The position numbers and the translations under genes were made by a program. A DNA stretch of 64,000 bases, taken from NCBI RefSeq assembly GCF_003334335.1, contig NZ_QOWQ01000015.1; one strand, 5' to 3'. Origin of the DNA: Escherichia coli (GTDB lineage: Bacteria > Pseudomonadota > Gammaproteobacteria > Enterobacterales > Enterobacteriaceae). The notes below the pieces were generated by a model. That model was not told the DNA's origin, did not search any database, and saw only the letters and a list, made by a program, of their open reading frames with translations. Positions 3,935-48,650 of this stretch are shown here, piece by piece (positions within the stretch are counted from its first letter, which is position 1; each line of letters begins with the position of its first letter).

Positions 3935-5308
3935 TTAACTCCGCTTATACAGCGGCAACCAAATCACCAGCCGTAAACCGCCCAGCGGGCTGTCTTCTGC
4001 CTTCACCCAGCCACGATGCTGCTGAATGGCGGTTTCAACAATCGCCAGCCCCAAACCTGTACCGCCAGATTCACGATCGCGTGCTTCATCGGTACGATAG
4101 AACGGACGGAAAATCTGTTCGCGATCTTCCGGGCTAACGCCAGGACCATCGTCGTCCACCGTAATGGTGATACCGTCTTTATCTACCGCAAAGCCCACTT
4201 CAATCTTCGTATGGGAATAACGCAGAGCATTACGAACAATGTTTTCCAGCGCACTTTCCAGGGCGTTCGGATTGCCGTACAGCGGCCACGGCCCAGGCGG
4301 GAAGTTAACTGTCAACGACTTGCCCATTTGCTCGGCTTCGAACGCCGCGTTATCCAGCACTTCACTCCACAACTGGTTGGCTTTGATGGTTTCGCTAACC
4401 AGCGCGTTTTTTTGCTGATTACGTGACATCACCAACAGATCGTTGATCATGCTGTCCAGACGTTGCGCTTCGGTTTCAATACGCTCCAGTTCCTTGCTTT
4501 CACCGCTACGACGGCGCAGTAACGCCGTACCCAGTTGCAGACGCGTCAGCGGGGTGCGCAGCTCGTGAGAGATATCAGAAAGCAGACGCTGCTGAGAGGT
4601 CATCATGCGCTCCAGCGCGGTGACCATCTGGTTAAAACTGGCACCTGCGGCAAGGAATTCCTGTGGCCCCGCTTCCAGTTCCGGGTGCTGGCGTAAGTTT
4701 CCCTGGGCAACTTCATCGGCAGCGTTTTTCAGCTTACGCGCCGGTTTTGCCAGACTCCAGGCCAACCACAACAGCAGCGGCGTACTGACCAACATGGTGA
4801 CAATCAGCAGTAATAGCGGGCGGTCAAACAGTAAGTTAATGAAATCGGATTGAGAACTGCTGGCCGGACGAATCAGATAAAGTTGGTAATTATCTTCGCC
4901 ATCACGCACGGAGAACGGACCGACCAGTTCCACGCGGCCATACTTTTTCTTCTGCGGATGATCGGCGTTATCGGCCTGACCAATAAAGTTACGAATGATC
5001 TGCATTTCGCTGCGTTCAGCGCCGATCACGCGGCCTTCGGTGGTCACCAATAACAAACGCTGTCCTGGCGGTGCCCACTTATCAATCGCCCGGAACAGAC
5101 GCCGCCACCACATTAAATCGTTGGGCGGATCGTTCGCCAGCTCCGCTTCGACATGCTGCTCAATCATCAGCCCCTGACGCTGTTCGCTATCCAGAAGCTC
5201 GGTCATCTGGCGTGAATCGAGCTTGGGTAACATCAAAACCAACATCAACACCAGCGCCAGCGTCAGCCAGAAGATGGCGAAGATGCGCGCGGTTAAGCTG
5301 CCTATCAT
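3935..5308 (-). CDS. cpxA: Envelope-stress sensor histidine kinase CpxA
   Basis: ORF track 457 aa, MIGSLTARIFAIFWLTLALVLM..; HisKA H-box region SDISHELRTPLTRL visible; overlaps cpxR stop by 4 nt. Confidence 0.95.
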   Translation of the reverse strand: MIGSLTARIFAIFWLTLALVLMLVLMLPKLDSRQMTELLDSEQRQGLMIEQHVEAELANDPPNDLMWWRRLFRAIDKWAPPGQRLLLVTTEGRVIGAERSEMQIIRNFIGQADNADHPQKKKYGRVELVGPFSVRDGEDNYQLYLIRPASSSQSDFINLLFDRPLLLLIVTMLVSTPLLLWLAWSLAKPARKLKNAADEVAQGNLRQHPELEAGPQEFLAAGASFNQMVTALERMMTSQQRLLSDISHELRTPLTRLQLGTALLRRRSGESKELERIETEAQRLDSMINDLLVMSRNQQKNALVSETIKANQLWSEVLDNAAFEAEQMGKSLTVNFPPGPWPLYGNPNALESALENIVRNALRYSHTKIEVGFAVDKDGITITVDDDGPGVSPEDREQIFRPFYRTDEARDRESGGTGLGLAIVETAIQQHRGWVKAEDSPLGGLRLVIWLPLYKRS

Positions 5309-6003
5309 GAAGCAGAAACCATCAGATAGCCGCGACCACGCAAGGTTTTAAACCACGGGTGACCATCTTTACGATCCGGCAGTTTACGACGCAGGTTGGA
5401 AATGTGCATATCAATAGCGCGGTCGAAAGGCGTCAGGCGTTTGCCCAACACTTCCTGGCTTAAATGTTCACGGGAAACCACCTGACCCAGATGCTGTGCC
5501 AGCAAATAGAGCAGGGTAAACTCAGTACCGGTTAACTCCAGCGTTTGCCCGTCGAAGCTGGCTTCCTGACGGCCTGGATTCAGCACTAAGGCATCAACTT
5601 CCAGTGTCGGTGAACCGTTGTCGTTGTTTTGCTGTTGCTCGCTCCAGTGCGAACGGCGCAGGATCGCGCGAATACGTGCCACCAGCTCACGATCATTAAA
5701 CGGTTTCGGGAGATAGTCATCTGCGCCCAGCTCAAGGCCGAGAACGCGATCAAGTTCACTGCCGCGCGCCGTCAACATAATGACAGGCGTCTGGTGTGTC
5801 TGGCGAAGTGCTTTTAATGTGTCGATACCATTTTTCTTCGGCATCATTACGTCAAGCAAAAGTAAATCAATGCTGTCGTCCAGAAGATCAAGCGCCTGTT
5901 CCCCATCGTGGGCAACAATCACGTTGAAGCCTTCCATCTCGAGCAGCTCCTTTAATAGGGAAGTCAGCTCTCGGTCATCATCAACTAACAGGATTTTATT
6001 CAT
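5305..6003 (-). CDS. cpxR: Response regulator CpxR (OmpR family)
   Basis: ORF track 232 aa, MNKILLVDDDRELTSLLKELL..; receiver domain plus winged-helix C-terminus. Confidence 0.95.
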   Translation of the reverse strand: MNKILLVDDDRELTSLLKELLEMEGFNVIVAHDGEQALDLLDDSIDLLLLDVMMPKKNGIDTLKALRQTHQTPVIMLTARGSELDRVLGLELGADDYLPKPFNDRELVARIRAILRRSHWSEQQQNNDNGSPTLEVDALVLNPGRQEASFDGQTLELTGTEFTLLYLLAQHLGQVVSREHLSQEVLGKRLTPFDRAIDMHISNLRRKLPDRKDGHPWFKTLRGRGYLMVSAS

Positions 6004-6058
6004 TGTTTAAATACCTCCGAGGCAGAAATTACGTCATCAGACGTCGCTAATCCATGAC

Positions 6059-6073
6059 TTTACGTTGTTTTAC
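6059..6073 (-). promoter_or_regulatory. CpxR-P box (GTAAA-N5-GTAAA) in the cpxP / cpxRA divergent control region
   Basis: Reverse complement of 6059..6073 is GTAAAACAACGTAAA, an exact tandem-pentamer CpxR consensus; another GTAAA half-site at 6105..6109. Confidence 0.65.
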
Positions 6074-6152
6074 ACCCCCTGACGCATGTTTGCAGCCTGA
6101 ATCGTAAACTCTCTATCGTTGAATCGCGACAGAAAGATTTTGGGAGCAAATG

Positions 6153-6653
6153 ATGCGCATAGTTACCGCTGCCGTCATGGCCTCAACGCTGGCAGTCAGT
6201 TCATTAAGCCACGCTGCTGAAGTCGGTTCAGGCGATAACTGGCATCCGGGTGAAGAACTTACGCAGCGCAGTACGCAGAGCCATATGTTCGACGGCATAA
6301 GTTTAACCGAACATCAGCGTCAGCAGATGCGAGATCTTATGCAACAGGCCCGGCACGAACAGCCTCCTGTTAATGTTAGCGAACTGGAGACAATGCATCG
6401 CCTTGTCACCGCAGAAAATTTTGATGAAAACGCTGTGCGCGCACAGGCAGAAAAAATGGCGAATGAGCAAATTGCTCGTCAGGTTGAGATGGCAAAAGTC
6501 CGCAACCAAATGTATCGCCTGTTAACGCCGGAGCAGCAAGCGGTTTTAAACGAGAAACATCAACAACGAATGGAGCAGTTGCGTGACGTGACGCAATGGC
6601 AAAAAAGTTCATCGTTGAAGCTATTGAGTAGTAGCAACTCACGTTCCCAGTAG
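6153..6653 (+). CDS. cpxP: Periplasmic Cpx-pathway inhibitor/chaperone CpxP
   Basis: ORF track 6150..6653; start at second ATG gives 166 aa ([21 protein letters not shown] signal peptide); divergent from cpxRA. Confidence 0.92.
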
Positions 6654-6662
6654 TAAACCCTG

Positions 6663-6720
6663 TTTTCCTTGCCATAGACACCATCCCTGTCTTCCCCCAC
6701 ATGCTGTGGGGGTTTTTTTT
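6663..6720 (+). ncRNA. cpxQ: CpxQ, 3'UTR-derived sRNA processed from the cpxP mRNA
   Basis: cpxP 3' UTR TTTTCCTTGCCATAGACACCATCCCTGTCTTCCCCCACATGCTGTGGGGGTTTTTTTT ends in the cpxP terminator; identity from recalled literature, boundaries approximate. Confidence 0.55.
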
Positions 6721-6721
6721 A
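6694..6721 (+). terminator. Rho-independent terminator of cpxP (3' end of CpxQ)
   Basis: CCCCCACATGCTGTGGGGG hairpin followed by eight T. Confidence 0.7.
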
Positions 6722-6801
6722 TCCTCAATTTGCCTGCTGCTTAATGCATTGCAGATGATTTGCTTCCGTTATACTAGCGTCAGTTGATAGCGGGAGTATT
6801 T

Positions 6802-7704
6802 ATGAATCAATCTTATGGACGGCTGGTCAGTCGGGCGGCGATTGCTGCGACGGCGATGGCTTCGCTGCTATTGCTGATTAAAATTTTTGCATGGTGGTAT
6901 ACCGGGTCGGTGAGTATTCTCGCCGCGCTGGTGGATTCGCTGGTGGATATCGGCGCGTCGTTGACGAATTTATTGGTGGTGCGATATTCCCTGCAACCTG
7001 CCGACGATAATCACTCGTTTGGTCACGGTAAAGCTGAGTCCCTCGCGGCGCTGGCGCAAAGTATGTTTATCTCCGGTTCGGCACTATTCCTGTTTTTGAC
7101 GGGTATTCAACATCTGATATCTCCAACACCGATGACAGATCCAGGCGTCGGGGTTATCGTGACAATTGTGGCGCTAATTTGTACGATTATCCTTGTCTCG
7201 TTTCAGCGTTGGGTGGTGCGGCGGACGCAAAGCCAGGCGGTGCGGGCTGATATGCTACATTACCAGTCTGATGTTATGATGAACGGCGCAATTCTGCTGG
7301 CGCTGGGGTTGTCCTGGTACGGCTGGCATCGCGCCGATGCTCTGTTTGCATTGGGAATCGGCATCTATATTTTATATAGCGCGTTACGCATGGGATATGA
7401 GGCGGTACAGTCATTACTGGATCGCGCATTGCCTGATGAGGAACGGCAAGAAATTATTGATATCGTGACTTCCTGGCCGGGTGTTAGCGGCGCTCACGAT
7501 CTTCGCACGCGGCAGTCAGGGCCGACCCGCTTTATTCAGATTCATTTGGAAATGGAAGACTCTCTGCCTTTGGTTCAGGCACATATGGTGGCGGATCAGG
7601 TAGAGCAGGCTATTTTACGGCGTTTTCCGGGATCGGATGTAATTATCCATCAGGACCCCTGTTCCGTCGTACCCAGGGAGGGTAAACGGTCTATGCTTTC
7701 ATAA
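6802..7704 (+). CDS. fieF: Cation diffusion facilitator Fe/Zn efflux pump FieF (YiiP)
   Basis: ORF track 6784..7704; start moved to ATG 6802 ([13 protein letters not shown]..), 300 aa, gggag SD upstream. Confidence 0.92.
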
Positions 7705-7884
7705 TCAGTATAAAAGAGAGCCAGACCCGCATTTTGTGTATAAAATACCGCCATTTGGCCTGACCTGAATCAATTCAGCAGGAAGTGATTGTTATACTAT
7801 TTGCACATTCGTTGGATCACTTCGATGTGCAAGAAGACTTCCGGCAACAGATTTCATTTTGCATTCCAAAGTTCAGAGGTAGTC

Positions 7885-8847
7885 ATGATTAAGAAAATCG
7901 GTGTGTTGACAAGCGGCGGTGATGCGCCAGGCATGAACGCCGCAATTCGCGGGGTTGTTCGTTCTGCGCTGACAGAAGGTCTGGAAGTAATGGGTATTTA
8001 TGACGGCTATCTGGGTCTGTATGAAGACCGTATGGTACAGCTAGACCGTTACAGCGTGTCTGACATGATCAACCGTGGCGGTACGTTCCTCGGTTCTGCG
8101 CGTTTCCCGGAATTCCGCGACGAGAACATCCGCGCCGTGGCTATCGAAAACCTGAAAAAACGTGGTATCGACGCGCTGGTGGTTATCGGCGGTGACGGTT
8201 CCTACATGGGTGCAATGCGTCTGACCGAAATGGGCTTCCCGTGCATCGGTCTGCCGGGCACTATCGACAACGACATCAAAGGCACTGACTACACTATCGG
8301 TTTCTTCACTGCGCTGAGCACCGTTGTAGAAGCGATCGACCGTCTGCGTGACACCTCTTCTTCTCACCAGCGTATTTCCGTGGTGGAAGTGATGGGCCGT
8401 TATTGTGGAGATCTGACGTTGGCTGCGGCCATTGCCGGTGGCTGTGAATTCGTTGTGGTTCCGGAAGTTGAATTCAGCCGTGAAGACCTGGTAAACGAAA
8501 TCAAAGCGGGTATCGCGAAAGGTAAAAAACACGCGATCGTGGCGATTACCGAACATATGTGTGATGTTGACGAACTGGCGCATTTCATCGAGAAAGAAAC
8601 CGGTCGTGAAACCCGCGCAACTGTGCTGGGCCACATCCAGCGCGGTGGTTCTCCGGTGCCTTACGACCGTATTCTGGCTTCCCGTATGGGCGCTTACGCT
8701 ATCGATCTGCTGCTGGCAGGTTACGGCGGTCGTTGTGTAGGTATCCAGAACGAACAGCTGGTTCACCACGACATCATCGACGCTATCGAAAACATGAAGC
8801 GTCCGTTCAAAGGTGACTGGCTGGACTGCGCGAAAAAACTGTATTAA
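7885..8847 (+). CDS. pfkA: 6-phosphofructokinase I
   Basis: ORF track 7789..8847 over-extended; true start ATG 7885 ([23 protein letters not shown]..) with gaggt SD; 320 aa. Confidence 0.96.
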
Positions 8848-8902
8848 TGATTTCGGAAAAAGGCAGATTCCTTTACCCTGAAACCGATGACAGAAGCAAA
8901 AA

Positions 8903-9003
8903 TGCCTGATGCGCTTCGCTTATCAGGCCTACATGAATTCTGCAATTTATTGAATTTGCAAACTTTTGTAGGCCGGATAAGGCGTTCGCGCCGCATCCGG
9001 CAT
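8903..9003. repeat. BIME (two inverted REPs with central linker), pfkA-sbp intergenic
   Basis: GCCTGATGCGCTTCGCTTATCAGGCCTAC ... GTAGGCCGGATAAGGCGTTCGCGCCGCATCCGGCA. Confidence 0.85.
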
Positions 9004-9166
9004 GGACAAAGCGCACTTTGTCAGCAATATGAGGCGGATTTCTTCCGCCTTTTTAATCCCTCAACATATACCCGCAAGTTATAGCCAATCTTTTTTTATT
9101 CTTTAATGTTTGGTTAACCTTCTGGCACGCTTTGCTCATCACAACACAACATAAGAGAGTCGGGCG

Positions 9167-10156
9167 ATGAACAAGTGGGGCGTAGGGTTAACATTTTTGC
9201 TGGCGGCAACCAGCGTTATGGCAAAGGATATTCAGCTTCTTAACGTTTCATATGATCCAACGCGCGAATTGTACGAACAGTACAACAAGGCATTCAGCGC
9301 CCACTGGAAACAGCAAACTGGTGATAACGTGGTGATTCGTCAGTCACACGGTGGCTCAGGTAAACAAGCGACGTCGGTAATCAACGGTATTGAAGCTGAT
9401 GTTGTCACGCTGGCTCTGGCCTATGACGTGGACGCAATTGCGGAACGCGGGCGGATTGATAAAGAGTGGATCAAACGTCTGCCGGATAACTCCGCACCGT
9501 ACACTTCCACCATTGTTTTCCTGGTACGTAAGGGAAATCCGAAGCAGATCCATGACTGGAACGATCTGATTAAACCGGGTGTTTCGGTGATCACGCCTAA
9601 TCCGAAAAGCTCTGGTGGCGCGCGCTGGAACTACCTGGCAGCCTGGGGCTACGCGCTGCATCACAACAACAACGATCAGGCAAAAGCACAGGATTTTGTT
9701 CGGGCACTGTATAAAAACGTCGAAGTTCTGGATTCTGGCGCGCGTGGCTCCACTAACACTTTTGTCGAGCGCGGAATTGGCGATGTACTGATTGCCTGGG
9801 AAAACGAAGCTCTGCTGGCAGCGAATGAACTGGGGAAAGATAAATTCGAAATCGTCACGCCGAGTGAGTCTATCCTCGCAGAGCCAACCGTGTCGGTGGT
9901 CGATAAAGTGGTCGAGAAAAAAGGTACTAAAGAGGTGGCGGAAGCCTACCTGAAATATCTCTACTCGCCAGAAGGTCAGGAAATTGCCGCGAAAAACTAC
10001 TACCGTCCGCGCGACGCTGAGGTGGCGAAAAAGTACGAAAATGCGTTTCCAAAGCTGAAGTTATTCACCATTGATGAAGAGTTCGGCGGCTGGACGAAAG
10101 CGCAAAAAGAGCATTTTGCTAACGGCGGTACGTTCGATCAGATCAGCAAACGCTGA
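9167..10156 (+). CDS. sbp: Periplasmic sulfate-binding protein
   Basis: ORF track 329 aa with signal peptide [19 protein letters not shown]; recognised as Sbp. Confidence 0.93.
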
Positions 10157-10176
10157 TTTCCCCAGGATAATTATCA

Positions 10177-10209
10177 AACCCGGTGGTTTCTCGCGACCGG
10201 GTTTTTTAT
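10177..10209 (+). terminator. Rho-independent terminator of sbp
   Basis: AAACCCGGTGGTTTCTCGCGACCGGGTTTTTTATTT. Confidence 0.6.
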
Positions 10210-10262
10210 TTGTCACGATTTTGCGTTACCCTTGCATCTCTTTGAGGTACAGGGAAAAAAAG

Positions 10263-11018
10263 ATGAAAAAAGCGGGTCTTCTTTTTTTGGTGATGATAGT
10301 TATCGCCGTTGTGGCTGCCGGTATTGGTTACTGGAAATTAACCGGTGAAGAGTCGGATACATTACGTAAGATTGTCCTTGAGGAATGTTTGCCCAATCAG
10401 CAGCAAAATCAAAATCCTTCGCCATGTGCGGAAGTCAAACCCAATGCCGGATACGTGGTTTTAAAAGATCTTAATGGCCCACTGCAATATCTGTTGATGC
10501 CAACGTATCGTATTAACGGTACTGAAAGTCCTTTGTTGACCGATCCTTCAACGCCGAACTTCTTTTGGTTGGCTTGGCAGGCGCGTGATTTTATGAGCAA
10601 AAAATACGGCCAGCCGGTTCCCGATCGCGCGGTTTCTTTGGCGATCAACTCCCGCACCGGGCGTACGCAAAACCATTTTCATATTCATATCTCTTGTATT
10701 CGTCCTGATGTGCGCAAACAGCTGGATAACAATCTGGCGAACATCAGCAGCCGCTGGTTGCCACTGCCAGGTGGTTTGCGCGGGCATGAATACCTGGCGC
10801 GTCGGGTAACGGAAAGCGAACTGGTACAACGCAGCCCATTTATGATGCTGGCAGAAGAAGTACCTGAGGCGCGGGAACATATGGGACGCTACGGGCTGGC
10901 GATGGTACGGCAGAGTGATAACTCATTTGTATTGCTGGCGACACAACGAAATCTACTGACGCTTAACCGTGCTTCAGCCGAGGAAATTCAGGATCATCAG
11001 TGTGAGATTTTGCGTTAA
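10263..11018 (+). CDS. cdh: CDP-diacylglycerol pyrophosphatase
   Basis: ORF track 10071..11018 over-extended; start moved to ATG 10263 ([17 protein letters not shown]..), 251 aa. Confidence 0.9.
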
Positions 11019-11040
11019 GGCGAAGAGTTAAGGAAAGTAA

Positions 11041-11063
11041 GTGCCGGATATGAAATCCGGCAC
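11041..11063. terminator. Shared hairpin between convergent cdh and tpiA
   Basis: GTGCCGGATATGAAATCCGGCAC perfect 9 bp stem; no strong T-run, so likely weak or bidirectional. Confidence 0.45.
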
Positions 11064-11072
11064 CTGTCAGAC

Positions 11073-38264: not shown

Positions 38265-39368
38265 TTATTCCCACTCTTGCAGGAAACGCTGACCGTACTG
38301 GTCGGCTACCAGCAGAGCGGCGTAAACCTGATCTGGCGTCGCGCCGCCAGGCATGTTGTGAATGGTTTCACCTTCTGCACATGCCGCTTCTGCCACAATT
38401 CGCATTTTCGCCGGGACATCTTCTTTAATATCCAGTTGAGCGAGAGTTATTGGCAAACCTACCGCATGGCTAAGGGCAGCTACGGTTTCGATTTCCTCCA
38501 CCGGCGCATTTTCCAGAACCAGCTGCGTCAGCGTACCGAATGCCACTTTTTCACCGTGATAATAGTGATGCGCGTCCGGGATAGCGGTCAGGCCGTTATG
38601 CACTGCGTGCGCCGCAGCCAGACCACCACTTTCAAAACCAACACCGCTCAAATAGGTGTTCGCTTCAATCACGCGCTCCAGCGCCGGAGTCACTACATGC
38701 TGTTCGGCAGCAAGCATCGCTTTTTCGCCTTCTTCCAGCAGGGTGTTGTAGCACAGTTCAGCCAGTGCCAGCGCAGCCTGGGTGCACTTGCCGCCCGCCA
38801 TGGTGGTCGCGCCGCTACGAGAGCAGGCACGCGCTTCAAACCAGGTTGCCAGCGCATCGCCGATACCCGCCGCTAACAGACGTGCAGGTGCGCCAGCGAC
38901 GATTTTGGTGTCGACAATGACCATATTCGGGTTATTTGGCAACAGCAGATAGCGGTCAAACTCACCCTCATCGGTGTAGATAACAGACAATGCGCTGCAC
39001 GGTGCATCGGTAGAGGCGATAGTCGGTGCGATCGCTACCGGAACACCCATGAAATGTGCCAGTGCTTTGGCAGTATCGAGGGTTTTTCCGCCACCGATAC
39101 CGAGAATTGCGCCACACTGCGCAGTCTCCGCGATGCCACGCAGACGGTCGATCTCATTTTGCGAACATTCACCGCCAAACGGCGCAATTTCTACTACCAG
39201 TCCAGCATCTTTAAAGCTTTTCTCGACAGTGGATTGAGCAAAACCTAAAACAAATTTGTCACCCACCACTAACCAGCGTTCTGCCAGCGGCTTCAGGTAT
39301 TCGCCCAGACGATTAATCACATCAGCGCCCTGGATGTATTTACCCGGTGATTGAATAATGCGGTCCAT
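38265..39368 (-). CDS. gldA: Glycerol dehydrogenase (NAD+)
   Basis: ORF track 38265..39407; start moved to ATG at 39368 ([22 protein letters not shown]..), 367 aa iron-containing ADH family. Confidence 0.93.
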
Positions 39369-39378
39369 AATTGCTCCT

Positions 39379-40041
39379 TTAGAGATGAGTAGTGCCAAAT
39401 GCGGCATTCCAGTCGTGTTCGAACTTCTCTATAGCTGACTCTACCGCAGGGGTGTTGAGCATTTGTTGCGCTACATCTAAGGGCAGGGTGATGGATTCAC
39501 ATCCTGCCAGTAAACAGTCCAGCGCCTGACGCGGCGTTTTAAAGCTGGCTGCCAGCACCATGCTTTCTGGCGCGTGCATTTCTAACAGCGTTTGCAGCTC
39601 CTGAACCGTACGAATGCCGTCTCCGCCCTGGGCATCTACGCGGTTAACATACGGAGCAACGTATTTTGCCCCTGCCAGTGCGGCTAATAACCCTTGTGCG
39701 GCGCTATATACAGCAGTGCCAAGTGTAGTAATACCCTCTTTTTTCAGTATTTTAATTGCTGCCAGACCTTCGGAAGTCACCGGGATTTTCACCACAATAC
39801 CCGGAATAGCGTCGCGCAGGCGCTTCGCTTCTTCCACCATCCCCTGCGCGTCGCGGCTCATGGTCTGAGCAAACAGAATGCCCTCATCACCAATCGCTTT
39901 TTGCAGACGCGGCAGCACTTCCCATATGGACTCCTTGCTGGCAGCGATAATGCTCGGGTTAGTTGTCACCCCGGCAATGGGGAATATGCGTGCCAGACGT
40001 TCGACTTCTGCGACGTTAGCGGTGTCCAGATACAGTTCCAT
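39379..40041 (-). CDS. fsaB: Fructose-6-phosphate aldolase 2
   Basis: ORF track 220 aa [30 protein letters not shown].. (transaldolase-like fold). Confidence 0.93.
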
Positions 40042-40052
40042 GATGTTTCCTT

Positions 40053-42554
40053 TTACAGTTCCAGTTCATGTTGCAGCAGGCTGGCGATAGCGTCGGCAGA
40101 GGCGGCGTTAACCAGCGCGTTACGGAATTCTTCGTGCATGATGCGGCGAGCGAGGCGCGAGAAAATGCGCATATGCTGATCGCCCGCAGCGTGTTTGTTC
40201 AGGGTTAACATAATGATGAATTGCGCTTCATCATCGCCCCAGCGCACCGGCGCTTGCAGACGCGCCACGCTGATGGTGGATTGCTCAATGTGTTCTGATT
40301 TGCTGTGTGGAATGGCAAAACTAAAGCCCAGACCGGTAGAGAAAACGGCCTCGCGCGCCCACAAGTCGGCTTCCAGTTTACGCGGATAGCGGCAGCGGCC
40401 CGCCAGCAGCAGGTTATCGGTCATGCCTTTGAGCACTTCTTCTTTGCTGCGCCAGTCGCTTTCCAGTGTGATGCACTCGGCGGTGACCAGCGGTGCGTCT
40501 TGTTGGGTCATGCGGAATTGCGCCAGCAGGTGTTCCACTTCCAGCGAAGTACGGCAGGCCATTGCCTGGTTGAGCAACTTGCGGCACTCACGGCTATCAA
40601 GTTGCGCCATCCGAGCTTTCGCCGCCGGAATTGATGGTGCGCTCATGCTGAGTTCATCCAGCCCTAAGCCGACCAGCAACGGCAGCACGGAACCTTTCGC
40701 TCCCAGCTCACCGCACAGACCAATCCATTTGCCCTGGCGATGCACCGCTTGCACGGCGTAATCGAGCGCCCGCAAGAATGCCGGATTCAGGCTGTTGTAG
40801 TGACGAGTAACCTTAGCGTTATCGCGATCCACCGCCAGCAGATACTGCGTCAGGTCATTACTACCAATACTAAAGAAATCAATCTCTTCGCAGCATTGAT
40901 CGATGATGAACATCACCGACGGCACTTCCAGCATGATGCCGAGCTGGATTTTCTCATCAAACGGAATGTGTTCGTTACGTAGTTGCTGTTTGGCTTCCGC
41001 CAGTTTTTCTTTCACCCATAAGATCTCTTCCATTGAGGAGATCATCGGGATCATGATTTTCAGGCTGCCGTGAGCGGAGGCGCGGAGGATCGACCGTAGC
41101 TGCGTGGTAAACAACGACGCGTACTCTTCATAAATACGCACGGCGCGATAACCGAGGAACGGGTTTGCCTCTGCGGGAATGTTCAGATAATCAACGGGTT
41201 TGTCGCCGCCAATGTCCATAGTGCGCACAATAATGCTGCGTCCGTTGGCGGATTCCAGCGCCTGACAAAAAATGTTGTACAACTCGCTTTCGCCCGGTGC
41301 GCTGGTGCGATCCATATAGAGCATTTCAGTGCGGAACAAACCAACGCCTTCCGCACCATTGCCGAATGCGGCCTGCGCTTCCACGGAGTGAGCGATGTTA
41401 GCGGCAATTTCAATGCGGATACCGTCAGCGGTACGGGCTTGTTGGGTCAGCCAGACACGCTGTTGCTCACGCAGGGCGTCCTGTACGCGGGCTTCTTGCT
41501 GATAATAACGAGCTACGGCTTCCCCTGGCTCAACCACAATCGCCCCGGCGTTGCCGTCGATATAAATCGTTTGTTGCTGCCACGGAGTAAGGGCATCAAT
41601 ATCCACACCAACCAGCGTTGGAATGTTGAACGAACGGGCAAGGATCACCGTATGTGAGGTGGTGCCGCCGCTTTTGAGCAACAATCCTTTGAGGTGATTT
41701 TTATCCAGTTCGAGGAACTGGCTGGGGGTCAGTTCATCAGCCATACAAATGGCGGGCTGCGTCAGTTTGCCCGGTGCCGGGAAGCGTTGCTCACCGTAGA
41801 TTTGCTGGAGTAACTGGAAGCAGACGTCGCGTACGTCCAGGGCACGTTCTTGCAGGTAGCTGCTGCTGGAACGGGAAAACTCTTCGCAAAAGTGATTCGC
41901 GCTGGCAACAATTGCTTCGGCGCAGCTTAATCCGGCGCTGACGCCTGCCAGTAAATGTTCGCGCAGGGAAGTATCGCCAGCCAGGGATCGGTGAGCTTCC
42001 AGAATCGCGCTGGTAGCACCGTCGCTATCCAGCAGACGAAACTCAATGTTTTTCAGTACCAGCGTCAGGCCGTTTTCCAGTGCGGATTGCTCGGCGTCAA
42101 CGCCTTTGGCTGCGGGAAGATTACCCAGCGCATTGAGATCTAAAGAAGAGATCGGCGTCAGAATGCCGCCTGCACTACCGCTGCACACGGTGCGGGCGCG
42201 GATAATTTGCGGATTCAGATTGGTCAGTGAAACCGGCAGTGGTTCCAGTTCGTCAGATTTAACTTCCGCCAGCGGCGCATCGCAGTGGGGGAATTCATCG
42301 CGCAGCCATTGGCTTAAACGCTGGTGCGCTTCCTGTTCGTCGGCCCCGGAAATCAGTAACTGGCAGTTATCGCCCGCCAGCGTATCGGTGCCAATCAGCG
42401 CAAGGGCGCTTTTGGCGTTGCCCTTGCGGTCAGTGCACAGGTTATGCCACTCAATTTGTGATGAAAAAGTATTACACAGCGTTTCAACGTGGCTTGCCGG
42501 ACGCGCATGTACGCCGTTAGGTAGCTCACAAATAAATTCCACAATCAGGGCCAT
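40053..42554 (-). CDS. ptsA: Multiphosphoryl-transfer PTS protein (HPr-like + enzyme I-like + EIIA-Fru-like fusion)
   Basis: ORF track 833 aa [26 protein letters not shown].. (HPr His-region at N-terminus), central PEP-utilising enzyme I region, C-terminal EIIA-like. Confidence 0.92.
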
Positions 42555-42862
42555 TGCCTCTCTCCCGGTACGGTTTTCTGTTTACAGGATAAGAGCGCAC
42601 GGCAACGGCCTGCCATGTGACAAATCTGCCAAAAGCTGGACAAATGTAATGTAACCGTCAATTTGCGACGCGTCTCACAAGACGCTGTTTTGCGGCATGC
42701 TTCCGGTTTATCGCAAGTTATGAGGCGGATCGCATTTTTGTACTGATATTACAAAAGTCCAGTAAATGGCCTTTTTATCCACTGTTTGCTCCGCCTGCGA
42801 TTGCCTATTGTTTCCTCCATCAAAAATATGGACATGGGCTTTCGCAAGCCCGGGAGCAGCTT

Positions 42863-43942
42863 ATGAATGAGTTGGTGCAGATCCTGAAAAATACCCGTCA
42901 GCATTTAATGACGGGCGTTTCACACATGATTCCCTTCGTGGTATCGGGCGGTATTTTGCTGGCGGTTTCCGTCATGTTGTATGGCAAAGGCGCAGTGCCG
43001 GATGCCGTAGCCGATCCAAATCTGAAAAAACTGTTTGATATCGGCGTTGCGGGCTTGACGCTGATGGTGCCTTTCCTCGCAGCGTACATCGGTTATTCCA
43101 TTGCAGAGCGTTCTGCGCTGGCTCCGTGCGCTATCGGTGCCTGGGTTGGTAACAGCTTTGGTGCGGGCTTCTTTGGTGCACTGATCGCCGGGATTATCGG
43201 CGGCATCGTGGTGCATTACCTGAAGAAAATTCCGGTGCATAAAGTTCTGCGCTCGGTGATGCCTATCTTCATTATTCCTATCGTCGGCACACTGATTACC
43301 GCAGGCATCATGATGTGGGGCTTGGGCGAGCCTGTAGGGGCGTTGACCAACAGCCTGACTCAGTGGCTTCAGGGGATGCAGCAGGGCAGCATTGTTATGC
43401 TGGCGGTGATCATGGGTCTGATGCTGGCGTTCGATATGGGCGGTCCGGTTAACAAAGTGGCCTATGCCTTCATGCTGATTTGCGTTGCTCAGGGTGTTTA
43501 TACCGTGGTGGCCATCGCTGCCGTGGGTATTTGTATCCCGCCGCTGGGGATGGGGCTGGCGACGCTGATTGGTCGTAAAAATTTCTCCGCAGAAGAGCGC
43601 GAAACCGGCAAAGCGGCACTGGTGATGGGCTGTGTTGGCGTTACTGAAGGGGCGATTCCTTTCGCCGCTGCCGATCCGCTGCGTGTCATTCCTTCCATCA
43701 TGGTCGGTTCAGTTTGTGGTGCAGTAACTGCGGCGCTGGTCGGTGCGCAGTGCTATGCAGGCTGGGGTGGTCTGATTGTGCTGCCGGTGGTTGAAGGCAA
43801 GCTGGGTTATATCGCAGCAGTGGCTGTCGGAGCAGTGGTGACGGCTGTTTGTGTGAACGTGCTGAAAAGTCTGGCGCGTAAAAATGGGTCTTCGACTGAT
43901 GAAAAAGAAGACGACCTGGATTTGGATTTTGAAATTAATTAA
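42863..43942 (+). CDS. frwC: Fructose-like PTS permease EIIC component
   Basis: ORF track 359 aa polytopic membrane protein MNELVQILKNTRQHLMTGVSHMIPFVVSGG.. Confidence 0.92.
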   Translation: MNELVQILKNTRQHLMTGVSHMIPFVVSGGILLAVSVMLYGKGAVPDAVADPNLKKLFDIGVAGLTLMVPFLAAYIGYSIAERSALAPCAIGAWVGNSFGAGFFGALIAGIIGGIVVHYLKKIPVHKVLRSVMPIFIIPIVGTLITAGIMMWGLGEPVGALTNSLTQWLQGMQQGSIVMLAVIMGLMLAFDMGGPVNKVAYAFMLICVAQGVYTVVAIAAVGICIPPLGMGLATLIGRKNFSAEERETGKAALVMGCVGVTEGAIPFAAADPLRVIPSIMVGSVCGAVTAALVGAQCYAGWGGLIVLPVVEGKLGYIAAVAVGAVVTAVCVNVLKSLARKNGSSTDEKEDDLDLDFEIN

Positions 43943-43956
43943 TTGAGGAACGAGCC

Positions 43957-44277
43957 ATGACGAAAATTATTGCAGTAACCGCATGTCCTTCAGGTGTTGC
44001 CCATACCTATATGGCAGCAGAGGCGCTGGAAAGTGCCGCGAAAGCGAAAGGCTGGGAAGTGAAAGTAGAAACCCAGGGGTCAATTGGTCTGGAAAATGAA
44101 CTGACTGCGGAAGATGTGGCGAGCGCTGATATGGTGATTCTGACCAAAGATATCGGCATCAAGTTTGAAGAGCGTTTTGCTGGCAAGACCATCGTGCGCG
44201 TCAACATCAGCGATGCAGTAAAACGTGCTGACGCCATTATGAGCAAAATTGAAGCTCACCTGGCGCAAACCGCTTAA
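43957..44277 (+). CDS. frwB: Fructose-like PTS EIIB component
   Basis: ORF track 106 aa MTKIIAVTACPSGVAHTYMAAEALE.. (active-site Cys in TACPSG). Confidence 0.92.
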   Translation: MTKIIAVTACPSGVAHTYMAAEALESAAKAKGWEVKVETQGSIGLENELTAEDVASADMVILTKDIGIKFEERFAGKTIVRVNISDAVKRADAIMSKIEAHLAQTA

Positions 44278-44327
44278 GTTCTTCTCCCGCTCGCAAGGGC
44301 GGGTTCGCTTTCCCACAGGAGTTCCTC

Positions 44328-46625
44328 ATGACGAATCGTATCTCTCGCCTCAAAACTGCACTGTTTGCCAATACCCGTGAAATCTCGCTGGAGCGGGCGC
44401 TGCTTTATACCGCCAGCCATCGGCAAACCGAAGGCGAACCGGTGATATTGCGCCGGGCGAAAGCAACAGCGTATATCCTTGAACATGTTGAAATTTCGAT
44501 TCGTGATGAAGAACTGATTGCCGGTAACCGCACCGTAAAACCGCGCGCCGGGATTATGTCGCCGGAAATGGACCCTTACTGGCTGCTGAAAGAGCTGGAT
44601 CAATTCCCGACGCGTCCGCAGGACCGCTTTGCTATCAGCGAAGAAGATAAACGTATCTACCGTGAAGAGTTGTTCCCGTACTGGGAAAAACGTTCGATGA
44701 AAGATTTCATCAACGGGCAGATGACAGATGAAGTAAAAGCCGCGACCAACACGCAGATTTTCAGCATCAACCAGACGGATAAAGGCCAGGGGCACATTAT
44801 TATTGATTACCCACGCCTGTTGAATCACGGGCTGGGTGAGCTGGTGGCACAGATGCAGCAACATTGTCAGCAACAGCCGGAGAATCACTTTTATCAGGCC
44901 GCGTTGTTACTGCTGGAAGCCTCGCAGAAACACATTTTGCGTTACGCCGAACTGGCGGAAACGATGGCGGCAAACTGCACAGATGCCCAGCGTCGCGAAG
45001 AGCTGCTGACTATTGCAGAGATCTCCCGCCATAACGCGCAACATAAGCCGCAGACGTTCTGGCAGGCGTGCCAGTTATTCTGGTACATGAACATCATTCT
45101 GCAATACGAATCCAACGCCAGTTCGCTATCGTTGGGGCGCTTCGACCAGTATATGTTGCCGTTCTATCAGACATCATTAACCCAGGGCGAAGATGCGGCG
45201 TTCCTGAAAGAACTGCTCGAATCTTTATGGGTGAAATGCAACGACATCGTGCTGTTGCGCTCCACCAGTAGCGCGCGTTATTTCGCCGGTTTCCCGACCG
45301 GCTATACCGCACTGCTCGGCGGGTTAACCGAGAACGGACGTAGCGCGGTGAACGTGCTTTCGTTCCTTTGCCTTGACGCCTATCAAAGCGTGCAATTACC
45401 GCAACCGAACCTCGGCGTGCGCACTAACGCCTTGATCGACACGCCGTTCCTGATGAAAACCGCCGAAACCATTCGCTTCGGCACCGGTATTCCGCAAATC
45501 TTTAACGATGAAGTGGTGGTGCCAGCGTTCCTCAACCGTGGCGTTTCGCTGGAAGATGCGCGCGACTATTCCGTAGTGGGCTGTGTGGAATTATCTATTC
45601 CCGGCAGAACCTACGGCTTGCATGACATCGCGATGTTTAATCTGCTGAAAGTGATGGAAATCTGCCTGCATGAAAATGAAGGCAATGCTGCGCTGACTTA
45701 TGAAGGTTTACTGGAGCAGATCCGCGCCAAGATCAGCCACTACATCACCCTGATGGTTGAGGGCAGCAATATTTGTGATATCGGCCATCGCGACTGGGCA
45801 CCTGTACCGCTGCTCTCATCGTTTATCAGCGATTGTCTGGAAAAAGGCCGCGATATTACCGATGGCGGCGCGCGTTATAACTTCTCCGGCGTACAGGGGA
45901 TCGGTATCGCCAACCTGAGCGATTCTCTCCATGCGTTGAAAGGGATGGTTTTTGAGCAACAGCGTTTAAGTTTTGACGAATTGCTGTCGGTATTAAAAGC
46001 CAACTTCGCAACGCCAGAAGGCGAAAAAGTCCGCGCTCGCTTAATTAACCGCTTCGAGAAATACGGTAACGATATCGACGAGGTGGATAACATCAGCGCC
46101 GAACTGTTGCGCCACTACTGCAAAGAAGTGGAAAAATACCAGAACCCGCGCGGCGGCTACTTCACGCCGGGATCGTATACCGTTTCTGCTCACGTCCCGT
46201 TGGGATCGGTGGTTGGCGCGACGCCAGACGGTCGTTTTGCCGGAGAACAGCTGGCAGACGGCGGCTTGTCACCCATGCTGGGCCAGGACGCACAAGGGCC
46301 AACAGCGGTACTGAAGTCAGTCAGTAAGCTCGATAACACGCTGCTGTCTAACGGTACGTTGCTGAACGTGAAATTCACTCCGGCGACCCTGGAAGGTGAA
46401 GCAGGATTACGCAAACTGGCCGACTTCTTACGGGCGTTTACCCAGCTTAAGTTACAACATATTCAGTTTAACGTGGTGAACGCCGACACGTTGCGGGAAG
46501 CGCAACAGCGCCCACAAGATTATGCCGGGCTGGTGGTGCGCGTTGCCGGATACAGCGCCTTCTTTGTCGAACTGTCGAAGGAGATCCAGGATGACATCAT
46601 CCGCCGGACAGCGCATCAGCTGTAA
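44328..46625 (+). CDS. pflD: Glycyl-radical enzyme (pyruvate formate-lyase-like), substrate unknown
   Basis: ORF track 765 aa; C-terminal glycyl-radical motif RVAGYSAFF visible. Confidence 0.93.
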   Translation: MTNRISRLKTALFANTREISLERALLYTASHRQTEGEPVILRRAKATAYILEHVEISIRDEELIAGNRTVKPRAGIMSPEMDPYWLLKELDQFPTRPQDRFAISEEDKRIYREELFPYWEKRSMKDFINGQMTDEVKAATNTQIFSINQTDKGQGHIIIDYPRLLNHGLGELVAQMQQHCQQQPENHFYQAALLLLEASQKHILRYAELAETMAANCTDAQRREELLTIAEISRHNAQHKPQTFWQACQLFWYMNIILQYESNASSLSLGRFDQYMLPFYQTSLTQGEDAAFLKELLESLWVKCNDIVLLRSTSSARYFAGFPTGYTALLGGLTENGRSAVNVLSFLCLDAYQSVQLPQPNLGVRTNALIDTPFLMKTAETIRFGTGIPQIFNDEVVVPAFLNRGVSLEDARDYSVVGCVELSIPGRTYGLHDIAMFNLLKVMEICLHENEGNAALTYEGLLEQIRAKISHYITLMVEGSNICDIGHRDWAPVPLLSSFISDCLEKGRDITDGGARYNFSGVQGIGIANLSDSLHALKGMVFEQQRLSFDELLSVLKANFATPEGEKVRARLINRFEKYGNDIDEVDNISAELLRHYCKEVEKYQNPRGGYFTPGSYTVSAHVPLGSVVGATPDGRFAGEQLADGGLSPMLGQDAQGPTAVLKSVSKLDNTLLSNGTLLNVKFTPATLEGEAGLRKLADFLRAFTQLKLQHIQFNVVNADTLREAQQRPQDYAGLVVRVAGYSAFFVELSKEIQDDIIRRTAHQL

Positions 46626-47469
46626 CGTTGTGGAAACGCGCCGCGATGATGTGGCGCGCATTTTCAACATTCAGCGTTATTCACTGAATGACGGCGAGGG
46701 CATTCGTACGGTGGTCTTTTTTAAAGGCTGTCCGCATCTTTGCCCGTGGTGTGCTAATCCGGAGTCGATCTCCGGCAAAATCCAGACGGTACGCAGAGAG
46801 GCGAAATGTCTGCACTGTGCGAAATGTTTGCGTGATGCGGATGAATGCCCCTCCGGGGCGTTTGAACGGATTGGTCGCGATATCAGCCTTGACGCTCTGG
46901 AACGGGAAGTGATGAAAGATGACATTTTCTTTCGCACGTCCGGCGGCGGCGTCACGCTTTCTGGCGGCGAAGTGTTAATGCAGGCGGAGTTTGCTACCCG
47001 TTTTTTACAGCGACTGCGGCTGTGGGGTGTGTCATGCGCCATTGAAACTGCCGGAGACGCACCAGCCAGCAAGCTATTACCGCTGGCGAAATTGTGCGAT
47101 GAAGTGTTGTTCGATTTAAAAATTATGGACGCGACTCAGGCGCGGGATGTGGTGAAGATGAACCTGCCACGCGTGCTGGAGAATCTGCGTTTGCTGGTGA
47201 GTGAGGGCGTCAACGTGATCCCGCGTTTACCGCTGATCCCTGGTTTCACGCTCAGCCGGGAGAATATGCAGCAGGCGCTGGATGTACTGATCCCGCTGAA
47301 TATCAGGCAGATCCATCTGTTACCGTTTCATCAGTACGGCGAACCGAAATACCGCCTGCTGGGGAAAACATGGTCGATGAAAGAGGTGCCTGCGCCGTCG
47401 TCAGCTGATGTGGCAACGATGCGCGAAATGGCAGAACGGGCCGGACTTCAGGTTACCGTGGGAGGTTAA
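46591..47469 (+). CDS. pflC: Glycyl-radical enzyme activating enzyme (radical SAM)
   Basis: ORF track 46522..47469; start moved to ATG 46591 (MTSSAGQRISCNV..) with ggag SD; CxxxCxxC motif GCPHLCPWC; overlaps pflD 3' end by 35 nt; 292 aa. Confidence 0.9.
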   Translation: MTSSAGQRISCNVVETRRDDVARIFNIQRYSLNDGEGIRTVVFFKGCPHLCPWCANPESISGKIQTVRREAKCLHCAKCLRDADECPSGAFERIGRDISLDALEREVMKDDIFFRTSGGGVTLSGGEVLMQAEFATRFLQRLRLWGVSCAIETAGDAPASKLLPLAKLCDEVLFDLKIMDATQARDVVKMNLPRVLENLRLLVSEGVNVIPRLPLIPGFTLSRENMQQALDVLIPLNIRQIHLLPFHQYGEPKYRLLGKTWSMKEVPAPSSADVATMREMAERAGLQVTVGG

Positions 47470-47470
47470 A

Positions 47471-47812
47471 ATGGCATACCTGGTGGCAGTAACCGCCTGC
47501 GTAAGCGGCGTGGCGCATACTTATATGGCGGCGGAACGGCTGGAAAAGTTGTGCCTGTTAGAGAAGTGGGGAGTCAGCATTGAAACTCAGGGCGCGCTGG
47601 GAACGGAGAATCGTTTAGCGGATGAGGATATCCGCCGGGCGGATGTTGCTCTGTTGATTACGGATATCGAGCTTGCCGGTGCCGAGCGATTTGAACATTG
47701 CCGCTATGTGCAATGCAGCATCTACGCATTCCTGCGTGAGCCGCAGCGGGTAATGAGCGCGGTGCGCAAAGTGCTTTCTGCGCCGCAGCAAACCCATCTT
47801 ATTCTGGAGTAG
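47471..47812 (+). CDS. frwD: Fructose-like PTS EIIB component 2
   Basis: ORF track 47408..47812; start moved to ATG 47471 (MAYLVAVTACVSGVAHTYMAAERLE..), 113 aa; paralog of frwB. Confidence 0.9.
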   Translation: MAYLVAVTACVSGVAHTYMAAERLEKLCLLEKWGVSIETQGALGTENRLADEDIRRADVALLITDIELAGAERFEHCRYVQCSIYAFLREPQRVMSAVRKVLSAPQQTHLILE

Positions 47813-48650
47813 TCGGTTTTTCTGTCAGTTGGCTGTGGTACTGCCGGCGATATTCCGACGGCGAGCGTTCGGTGTTTTTACGAAACAGACGGCAGAAGTA
47901 GTTGCTGTCGACAAAGCCGCAGGCGTGCGCCACTTCTTTTACCTTCAGGTCATAGCCTTTCAATAACGTCTTAGCGTGCTCCAGTCGCGTGTGATTCAGG
48001 TATTCGTTAAAACCAATGGCCCCCGTTTTTTGAAACAGGTGCGAGAGGTAATTTGGCGAAATATAAAACGCCTGTGCAACAGATTCGCGGGTAAGCGCGG
48101 AGGCATAGCGTTCGTCGATATAATCGCGAATAGCTTCAAATAGTGCCTGGCTGCGTGAGGCGGTCTGGATTTGGCTGCCAAGCAAATCGCGGCAGTGGCT
48201 AAGCAGGCTGGCGACGATAAGCCTTGCCGTTTGCTGCTCCTGCGGCTGCATTTGCATTTCATTGAGCGTTTGTAGCAGAAAAGAACCTATGCGTGGGCCG
48301 CGTCGGGCGACGTGTTGCTTCGCCAGATTTTGATATTGTTTGCCATCCCATTGCACGACGCTGAAGCCGAGTTGCTGTTTGCCAAACAGCACGCTAAAGG
48401 TAGTAGCGGGGGCTTGCCATTGTGGAAAATTCCAGCCACCAGCAGGAACGTACAGCACATCGCCGGGAACTAACGTTGCTCCAGCGCCGGTATCAACAAA
48501 CTCACCTTCCAGCACAATTTCCAGCCGTGGAAAATCGACCTGATACGCAAGATCGGGCACCGGGCCGTTACTGCTGGCAAAGTAAATCTGGCGCAGGGAC
48601 AGCGGGCCGTTGATCAGGCGGGAGAGCAGATAGCTGACGTCGTGATACAT
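47799..48650 (-). CDS. yijO: AraC-family transcriptional regulator
   Basis: ORF track 283 aa; cupin-like N-terminus and C-terminal AraC HTH (..YLSHLFQK..FNEYLNHTRLEHAKTLL); 3' end overlaps frwD by 14 nt (convergent). Confidence 0.88.
   Translation of the reverse strand: MYHDVSYLLSRLINGPLSLRQIYFASSNGPVPDLAYQVDFPRLEIVLEGEFVDTGAGATLVPGDVLYVPAGGWNFPQWQAPATTFSVLFGKQQLGFSVVQWDGKQYQNLAKQHVARRGPRIGSFLLQTLNEMQMQPQEQQTARLIVASLLSHCRDLLGSQIQTASRSQALFEAIRDYIDERYASALTRESVAQAFYISPNYLSHLFQKTGAIGFNEYLNHTRLEHAKTLLKGYDLKVKEVAHACGFVDSNYFCRLFRKNTERSPSEYRRQYHSQLTEKPTTPE

Follow-up and report, generated by a model that had tools for sequence, protein, structure and literature searches.

Which sugar is taken up, and which radical reaction is catalyzed, by the products of the frw-pfl locus of Escherichia coli, in which genes for the Frw phosphotransferase system (PTS) are clustered with those for a glycyl-radical enzyme (GRE), PflD, and a radical S-adenosylmethionine (radical-SAM) protein, PflC, and lie divergent to the genes ptsA, fsaB and gldA? 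We addressed this question in a stretch of 64,000 nucleotides of the E. coli chromosome extending from rhaT to btuB (hereafter the window), in which the locus occupies 8434 bases at positions 39379-47812; all coordinates given are positions in the window. An earlier sequence-only reading of the same DNA had held both the sugar carried by the PTS and the substrate of PflD to be undefined.

That view is out of date. PflD is identical at 765 of 765 residues to residues 17-781 of chain A of the crystal structure 8yjo, deposited in PDB as "Probable dehydratase PflD", and its substrate was published in 2024: according to section 5.1 of a 2025 review (PMC12441222), Ma et al. (JACS 2024, 146:26187, pmid 39283600) reported that PflD ring-opens 1,5-anhydromannitol-6-phosphate (AM6P) to 1-deoxyfructose-6-phosphate. 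The review further states that YbiW, a second E. coli GRE, likewise cleaves 1,5-anhydroglucitol-6-phosphate to 1-deoxyfructose-6-phosphate (Ma et al.), that both cleavages are preceded by phosphorylation of 1,5-anhydroglucitol and 1,5-anhydromannitol 'via a phosphotransferase system', and that the reactions of YbiW and PflD are glycyl-radical and oxygen-sensitive. It adds that the pathways permit E. coli and many gut bacteria to grow on 1,5-anhydroglucitol, most likely under strict anaerobiosis only. Two more papers cite the work of Ma et al. (2024). Thus, the literature already assigns a substrate and a pathway to the locus, an outcome that the sequence-only reading had itself named as a refutation, and the function of PflD is already known, its substrate question having been solved in 2024. 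We put at roughly 0.87 the probability that this locus serves E. coli as its module for breaking down 1,5-anhydro-D-mannitol anaerobically, a branch of the radical-mediated 'anhydroglycolysis' described by Ma et al. (2024). With that work a long-standing K-12 puzzle, comprising two orphan GREs, an orphan PTS, and fructose-6-phosphate aldolase (FSA) and GldA enzymes lacking a physiological role, was resolved and is no longer an open lead.

PflD among the glycyl-radical enzymes

The glycyl-radical loop of PflD, RVAGYSAFF, lies at residues 738-746 and places Gly741 within a C-terminal RVxG(F/W/Y) motif, bearing out the recognition of PflD as a GRE from this motif in the sequence-only reading. In the middle of the protein a GCVE loop (residues 418-421), which aligns with the GCIE of YbiW, supplies a single cysteine, Cys419, followed by Glu421; a search for a Cys-Cys pair across all 765 residues recovered none. 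PflD matches the TIGR01774 (PFL2-3) model over residues 1-765 with 1356 bits (cut-off 678), and the equivalog model of true pyruvate formate-lyase (PFL), TIGR01255, with just 121.9 bits (cut-off 994.2), over the C-terminal region alone. Other than 8yjo, a search of PDB with PflD recovered the YbiW structures 8yjn and 8id7, an orthologue (8id0; 61-62% identical), B12-independent glycerol dehydratase (654 bits), the glycyl radical protein 9rco (604 bits) and diol dehydratase (600 bits), with the E. coli PFL structures scoring 117 bits. In a library of representatives at 50% identity the PflD orthologues fall in one cluster, and they form a discrete clade because the next full-length family is just 47% identical. 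A placement of PflD among the GRE subfamilies had been recommended in the sequence-only reading; as judged from the PDB and model scores, PflD belongs with the dehydratase-type GREs (the PFL2/glycerol-dehydratase eliminase subfamily), far from PFL.

These observations bear directly on the possibility that PflD and its activase PflC constitute a second formate-lyase system for pyruvate (or 2-ketobutyrate), beside which the PTS genes lie by coincidence. Such a function is what the current names imply: in RefSeq and in NCBIfam release 20 (June 2026) PflD is a 'formate C-acetyltransferase', after the equivalog NF007437 of that title, PflC is a '[formate-C-acetyltransferase]-activating enzyme' (NF007483), and YbiW of K-12 is a 'putative pyruvate formate lyase' in RefSeq; further, the glycyl-radical fold and motif are common to PflD and PFL. 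A Cys-Cys dyad is needed for PFL chemistry, and the lone cysteine of the GCVE loop, together with the TIGR01255 score and the gap between PFL and glycerol dehydratase among the PDB matches, makes a formate-lyase exceedingly improbable. The depositors of the PDB entry also name a dehydratase, and the substrate given in section 5.1 of the review is AM6P. Hence the name 'formate C-acetyltransferase' is a historical misnomer for PflD, because the scores against the PFL model and structures are low and the dyad is lacking, and the outdated RefSeq and NCBIfam names will go on misleading readers.

The activase, the phosphorelay and the downstream enzymes

Adjoining the 3' end of pflD, as a partner gene of this GRE subfamily, is the gene for the radical-SAM activase PflC. 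Its CxxxCxxC motif, which had been picked out from the letters, is found as CPHLCPWC at residues 47-54, and a second cysteine cluster, CLHCAKC, follows at residues 73-79. PflC scores 262 bits against TIGR02494 (cut-off 174) and 627 bits against NF007483, the latter match aligning to residues 24-315 of a longer open reading frame (ORF). This ORF begins at 46522, which is not the annotated start; we take the annotated start at 46591, whereby the beginning of pflC overlaps the end of pflD by 35 nucleotides.

The claim that the locus encodes a full PTS phosphorelay was borne out by both the domains and their phospho-carrier residues. PtsA combines an HPr region (residues 10-83), an Enzyme I (EI) region (181-677) and a fructose-type EIIA region (EIIA-Fru; 690-814), with the respective phospho-carrier histidine motifs GVHARPA (14-20), GGTTSH (296-301) and AIPH (747-750). 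The permease FrwC matches NF007787 over its full length (720 bits, cut-off 426), and the two EIIB proteins, FrwB and FrwD, match NF007783 (210 bits, cut-off 135) and NF007747 (224 bits, cut-off 153) respectively. FrwB and FrwD are 44% identical and both retain the N-terminal cysteine motif VTAC(P/V)SGVAHT (Cys10). Thus EI, HPr, EIIA, EIIB and EIIC are all encoded with their phospho-carrier residues, constituting a complete Fru-family PTS, in which the roles of FrwB and FrwD may be separate, for example in transport and signalling.

Of the remaining enzymes, FsaB matches the FSA/TalC model TIGR00875 over its full length (354.6 bits, cut-off 245.95) and is 70% identical to FsaA. Hydroxyacetone is accepted by FSA as a donor substrate. 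GldA scores 752 bits against NF047954 (cut-off 700) and is, according to its annotation and NCBIfam, an NADH-dependent glycerol/L-1,2-propanediol dehydrogenase.

Gene-neighborhoods in other genomes

Salmonella, Citrobacter, Leclercia and Lelliottia display the same gene order as E. coli, namely gldA-fsaB-ptsA, divergent frwC-frwB-pflD-pflC-frwD, and yijO, which codes for an AraC-family regulator. In Edwardsiella tarda ATCC 23685, at 5033-14389 of locus L003, the arrangement fsaB-ptsA, frwCB-pflDC-frwD and yijO is found without gldA between uvrC/pgsA and the ato genes, with module proteins 73-92% identical to their E. coli counterparts; this suggests that a block of roughly 9 kb was transferred horizontally in one piece, together with the gene for the regulator. 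A first search for homologues gave only Enterobacteriaceae (at least 89% identity). A wider search, probed with the 8id0 sequence rebuilt from the alignment, recovered PflD orthologues 63-84% identical to 8id0 in Streptococcus, Enterococcus, Lactobacillaceae, Clostridium, Bacillus and Exiguobacterium.

We examined four of these non-enteric contexts, those of Streptococcus dysgalactiae, Enterococcus, Clostridium and Lactiplantibacillus. That of S. dysgalactiae is a single co-directional cluster coding for a separate EIIA and for homologues of FrwB (57% identity), FrwC (49%), PflD (61%), PflC (43%), FsaB (38%) and a GldA-like iron-dependent alcohol dehydrogenase (Fe-ADH; 50%). In Enterococcus genes for FrwB and FrwC homologues are found 3 kb upstream of those for the GRE and its activase, and across Streptococcus and Enterococcus the FrwB and FrwC homologues adjoining PflD orthologues show 49-59% identity. 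The Clostridium context has the activase followed by an Fsa homologue and an oxidoreductase, with a second, YbiW-like GRE 4.5 kb further on, and that of Lactiplantibacillus comprises the GRE and activase only, next to a DeoR regulator gene in divergent orientation. For the families that follow the PflD cluster in the 50% representative library, the gene contexts were uninformative on PflD. The gene-neighborhood comparison proposed in the sequence-only reading therefore finds the functional linkage recurring across enterobacteria and Firmicutes. The recurrence in two phyla of a Frw-type PTS with a GRE, an activase and an Fsa, with or without GldA, supports the published pathway, and the clustering of Frw with PflD orthologues across phyla likewise supports Frw as the probable transporter of PflD's substrate.

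It might instead be that Frw carries fructose or a fructose-like ketose and that a different PTS, for instance the one for mannose or for fructose, takes up 1,5-anhydromannitol. FrwC, FrwB, FrwD and the EIIA of PtsA all belong to the fructose PTS family, PtsA has been referred to a putative PTS that would serve the anaerobic catabolism of fructose (PMC6643234), and the phrase quoted above from PMC12441222 leaves the PTS unnamed. We regard this alternative as unlikely: homologues of FrwB and FrwC adjoin PflD orthologues in Streptococcus, in Enterococcus and in all the enterics examined, implying a common substrate, and 1,5-anhydromannitol would sterically be an analogue of 2-deoxy-fructopyranose, which makes a Fru-family EIIC a chemically plausible carrier.

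Two further observations emerged from these searches. On a contig of Clostridium sp. cel8 (L010, 8063-18243) a PflD-type GRE (64% identity) and a YbiW-like GRE (801 residues, 36% identical to PflD) are encoded less than 7 kb apart, each with its own activase and DeoR-type regulator and with different PTS systems flanking them; the two anhydro-sugar branches would seem to be united here in a single island. Separately, a protein of 908 residues from an ENA metagenome is 96% identical to PflD over just 69% of the query and is probably a mis-assembly or fusion artefact.

The proposed pathway and the points that weigh against it

The following sequence of events can be proposed for the locus. Within PtsA, phosphate from phosphoenolpyruvate (PEP) would be handed on by the EI domain via HPr to EIIA and from there to an EIIB, which may be FrwB, FrwD or both, and FrwC would import the anhydro-sugar with phosphorylation at O6, Frw being suggested as the responsible PTS by its clustering. 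PflC would install the glycyl radical on Gly741 of PflD, as expected from the family and from the adjacency of the genes, and PflD, using Cys419 and Glu421, then carries out the published radical ring-opening C-O cleavage of AM6P to 1-deoxyfructose-6-phosphate. Either FsaA or FsaB is said to split the latter into glyceraldehyde-3-phosphate and hydroxyacetone, and GldA reportedly forms 1,2-propanediol; in keeping with the known FSA and GldA activities and with the gene clustering, FsaB would probably serve the aldolase step here, and GldA would reduce hydroxyacetone to 1,2-propanediol with NADH, balancing redox. Among open-access papers that appeared after 2024, a search for accounts of these aldolase and dehydrogenase reactions was negative. 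Expression is probably dependent on CRP and would also need a dedicated activator; YijO, whose gene accompanies the module, suggests itself for this part. The route is essentially the one that had been outlined from the letters (uptake with phosphorylation by a PTS, radical cleavage of a C-C or C-O bond by PflD, and finally an aldolase and a dehydrogenase), and its PTS and cleavage steps are those given in PMC12441222.

Several points weigh against this pathway as the whole account of the locus. Of the five contexts that are non-enteric or distant, two, those of Lactiplantibacillus and Enterococcus, have no adjacent Fsa, and Edwardsiella lacks gldA; therefore the aldolase and dehydrogenase steps may come from elsewhere in the genome. 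Moreover, the minus-strand operon is not exclusive to the anhydro-sugar pathway because FsaB and GldA also serve dihydroxyacetone (DHA) use. Finally, a scan of the 308 bp control region between the divergent operons for sigma-70 consensus promoters found none, and neither did a scan of the same region for FNR sites (TTGAT-N4-ATCAA, with up to 3 mismatches). These absences are compatible with an activator-dependent promoter, though no proof of one.

The second of these points can be extended to the proposal that ptsA-fsaB-gldA is mainly a module for DHA or glycerol fermentation, loosely coupled to frw-pfl. A 2019 study (PMC6643234) treated ptsA-fsaB-gldA as a single operon of unclear role and found that FsaB and GldA are able to contribute to DHA use, chiefly when over-expressed: mutants deleted for fsaB or gldA grow more slowly on DHA, and over-expression in a ptsA::kan read-through strain doubles the growth rate. 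That Edwardsiella has the rest of the module without gldA would also agree with loose coupling. In the same study, however, expression of fsaB in the wild type was unchanged on DHA and that of gldA was down 2.5-fold (PMC6643234). Furthermore, in Streptococcus and Clostridium the GRE and its activase are followed by an Fsa homologue, in Streptococcus by a GldA homologue (50%) as well, and ptsA, coding for the phosphoryl donor of the Frw EIIBs, heads the very same operon. Taken together these facts render a primary role in DHA or glycerol fermentation very unlikely.

The empty sigma-70 scan, along with the historical lack of a phenotype, is also what might be expected if the locus were a cryptic or decaying remnant, unexpressed and with no present function. 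The state of the genes speaks against such decay. All eight proteins, including GldA, give end-to-end matches to their own NCBIfam models and score over the curated cut-offs, and therefore no gene of the module is pseudogenised. Several E. coli chromosomes match the 8434-base stretch with 100% identity, and every one of the 5426 complete genomes searched has the locus, 5394 of them with at least 80% of the stretch covered, in agreement with the earlier description of a known conserved locus rather than a novel insertion. The synteny in Salmonella, Citrobacter, Leclercia and Lelliottia, the module in Edwardsiella, and the conserved blocks and CRP-associated motif of the control region (PMC4287617; see below) all point the same way, as do reported transcriptome changes for pflD, frwC and gldA (PMC6643234) and the growth on the substrate reported in PMC12441222. 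Pseudogenisation or lack of expression, which had been named as grounds for abandoning the sequence-only reading, thus finds no backing, and we give a defunct remnant next to no chance.

Comparison with known systems

The locus is the same system as that of the PflD pathway of Ma et al. (2024; 8yjo): beyond the full identity of PflD, the gene order is as in every E. coli, and the window represents another strain. Within E. coli the closest parallel is the ybiW-ybiY/fsaA locus (8yjn, 8id7), which also combines a GRE dehydratase and an activase with a divergent fsaA. Along their full length YbiW and PflD share 37% identity as well as the Gly and Cys-x-Glu loops, and both form 1-deoxyfructose-6-phosphate (PMC12441222). 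The substrate of YbiW, in contrast, is the C2 epimer of that of PflD, and no dedicated PTS, gldA or AraC regulator adjoins ybiW. The S. dysgalactiae operon that codes for the 8id0 protein shares EIIA, EIIB, EIIC, the GRE, the activase, Fsa and the GldA-like Fe-ADH with the E. coli locus; it differs in that all its genes are co-directional, with a separate small EIIA in place of an HPr-EI-EIIA fusion, one EIIB and no AraC-family neighbor.

More distantly, the B12-independent glycerol dehydratase of Clostridium butyricum (1r8w), CutC, HypD and propanediol dehydratase resemble PflD in their fold, their RVxGY and GCVE motifs and their radical C-O/C-N elimination, and glycerol dehydratase, by the PDB score given above, is the closest non-orthologous solved structure. 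Unlike PflD, these enzymes act on small unphosphorylated substrates and involve no ring opening. PflB and PflA parallel PflD and PflC in pairing a member of the glycyl-radical superfamily with a radical-SAM activase; however, PflB possesses the Cys-Cys dyad and cleaves a C-C bond, whereas PflD has no such dyad and stays below the cut-off of the PFL model.

Layout of the locus and its control region

The gene identities, domain architecture and divergent-operon layout given in the sequence-only reading are all correct when compared with the ORFs, the RefSeq annotation and the NCBIfam models, with RefSeq and the ORF listing concurring with its gene calls, and the size and position of its 308 bp control region are confirmed by the sequence (Table 1). 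One adjustment concerns gldA, which had been counted within 39379-47812: the gene is indeed present as a member of the module but lies just beyond that range.

Table 1. Genes and control-region elements of the frw-pfl locus, with positions in the window
Feature	Position	Strand	Description
gldA	38265-39368	minus	RefSeq annotation; last gene of the ptsA-fsaB-gldA operon; outside 39379-47812
fsaB	39379-40041	minus	Fructose-6-phosphate aldolase 2, TAL/FSA family
ptsA	40053-42554	minus	833 aa; fused HPr - Enzyme I - EIIA(Fru) phosphoryl-transfer protein
Divergent control region	42555-42862		ptsA/frwC intergenic; 308 bp
Candidate CRP-like site, TGCGACGCGTCTCACA	42664-42679		Half-sites TG(C/A)GA and TCACA kept in 6/6 genera; N6 spacer variable
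CRP ChIP-associated motif, TGCGATCCGCCTCATA	42719-42734	minus	Reported for the ptsA/frwC intergenic region in ETEC H10407 (PMC4287617, table)
Near-invariant 35 bp block	42750-42784		31/35 invariant across six genera; upstream of frwC
Invariant GATTGCCTATTGT	42799-42811		Could hold a weak -35 element
frwC	42863-43942	plus	Fructose-family PTS EIIC permease
frwB	43957-44277	plus	PTS EIIB, Fru family
pflD	44328-46625	plus	Glycyl-radical enzyme, 765 residues
pflC	46591-47469	plus	Radical-SAM activase
frwD	47471-47812	plus	Second PTS EIIB paralogue
yijO	47799-48650	minus	AraC-family regulator gene, convergent with frwD
ChIP, chromatin immunoprecipitation; ETEC, enterotoxigenic E. coli.

When the control region is aligned across six genera, column identity averages 79% and discrete conserved blocks stand out. 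The motif TGCGATCCGCCTCATA has a single exact match in the window and is conserved across the genera. The near-invariant block contains a direct repeat, RTCCA(G/C)T, at 42757-42763 and 42777-42783; the 20 bp spacing is a geometry typical of the tandem half-sites of AraC-family proteins, and a specific regulator, YijO for instance, may bind here. Two other elements were considered and set aside: a perfect inverted repeat, TTTTGTA-N7-TACAAAA at 42736-42756, was dropped as an operator since its left arm is not conserved in Leclercia and Lelliottia, and a small hairpin with a T-run at 42670-42685, a potential terminator, coincides with the conserved CRP-like site and is read as the latter.

In each of the six enterobacterial genera yijO accompanies the module, even in Edwardsiella with its differing flanks, and in the Firmicutes contexts a DeoR-type gene occupies the neighboring position instead. 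The convergent frwD and yijO overlap at their 3' ends by 14 nucleotides (47799-47812), an arrangement kept in Salmonella, Citrobacter, Leclercia, Lelliottia and Edwardsiella and listed as a convergent excludon in an RNA-seq survey (PMC12288877). YijO itself was described in a 2022 survey (PMC9308461) as a transcription factor of unknown function with a divergent N-terminal domain. From these sequence features we tentatively suggest, as a possibility that is less likely than not, that YijO might be an anhydromannitol-responsive activator of both operons, binding the near-invariant block and acting jointly with CRP at the candidate site at 42664-42679, with the frwD/yijO overlap adding mutual transcriptional interference and with FrwB and FrwD possibly having separate roles. 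In the literature searched, no characterization of the regulator or of a division of labor between the two EIIB proteins was found, and the conserved blocks of the control region offer concrete targets for a modest follow-up on regulation.

A repeat array elsewhere in the window

Between ppc and argE, at 53679-54148, the window contains a tandem array with a 123 bp unit present in 3.8 copies with 98% matches. The unit is built of palindromes resembling repetitive extragenic palindromic (REP) sequences, as in a bacterial interspersed mosaic element (BIME). The array has one copy more than that of strain 300709, whereby the downstream coordinates are shifted by 123 bp, and the ORF inside it that is annotated in RefSeq as a 'hypothetical protein' is probably spurious.

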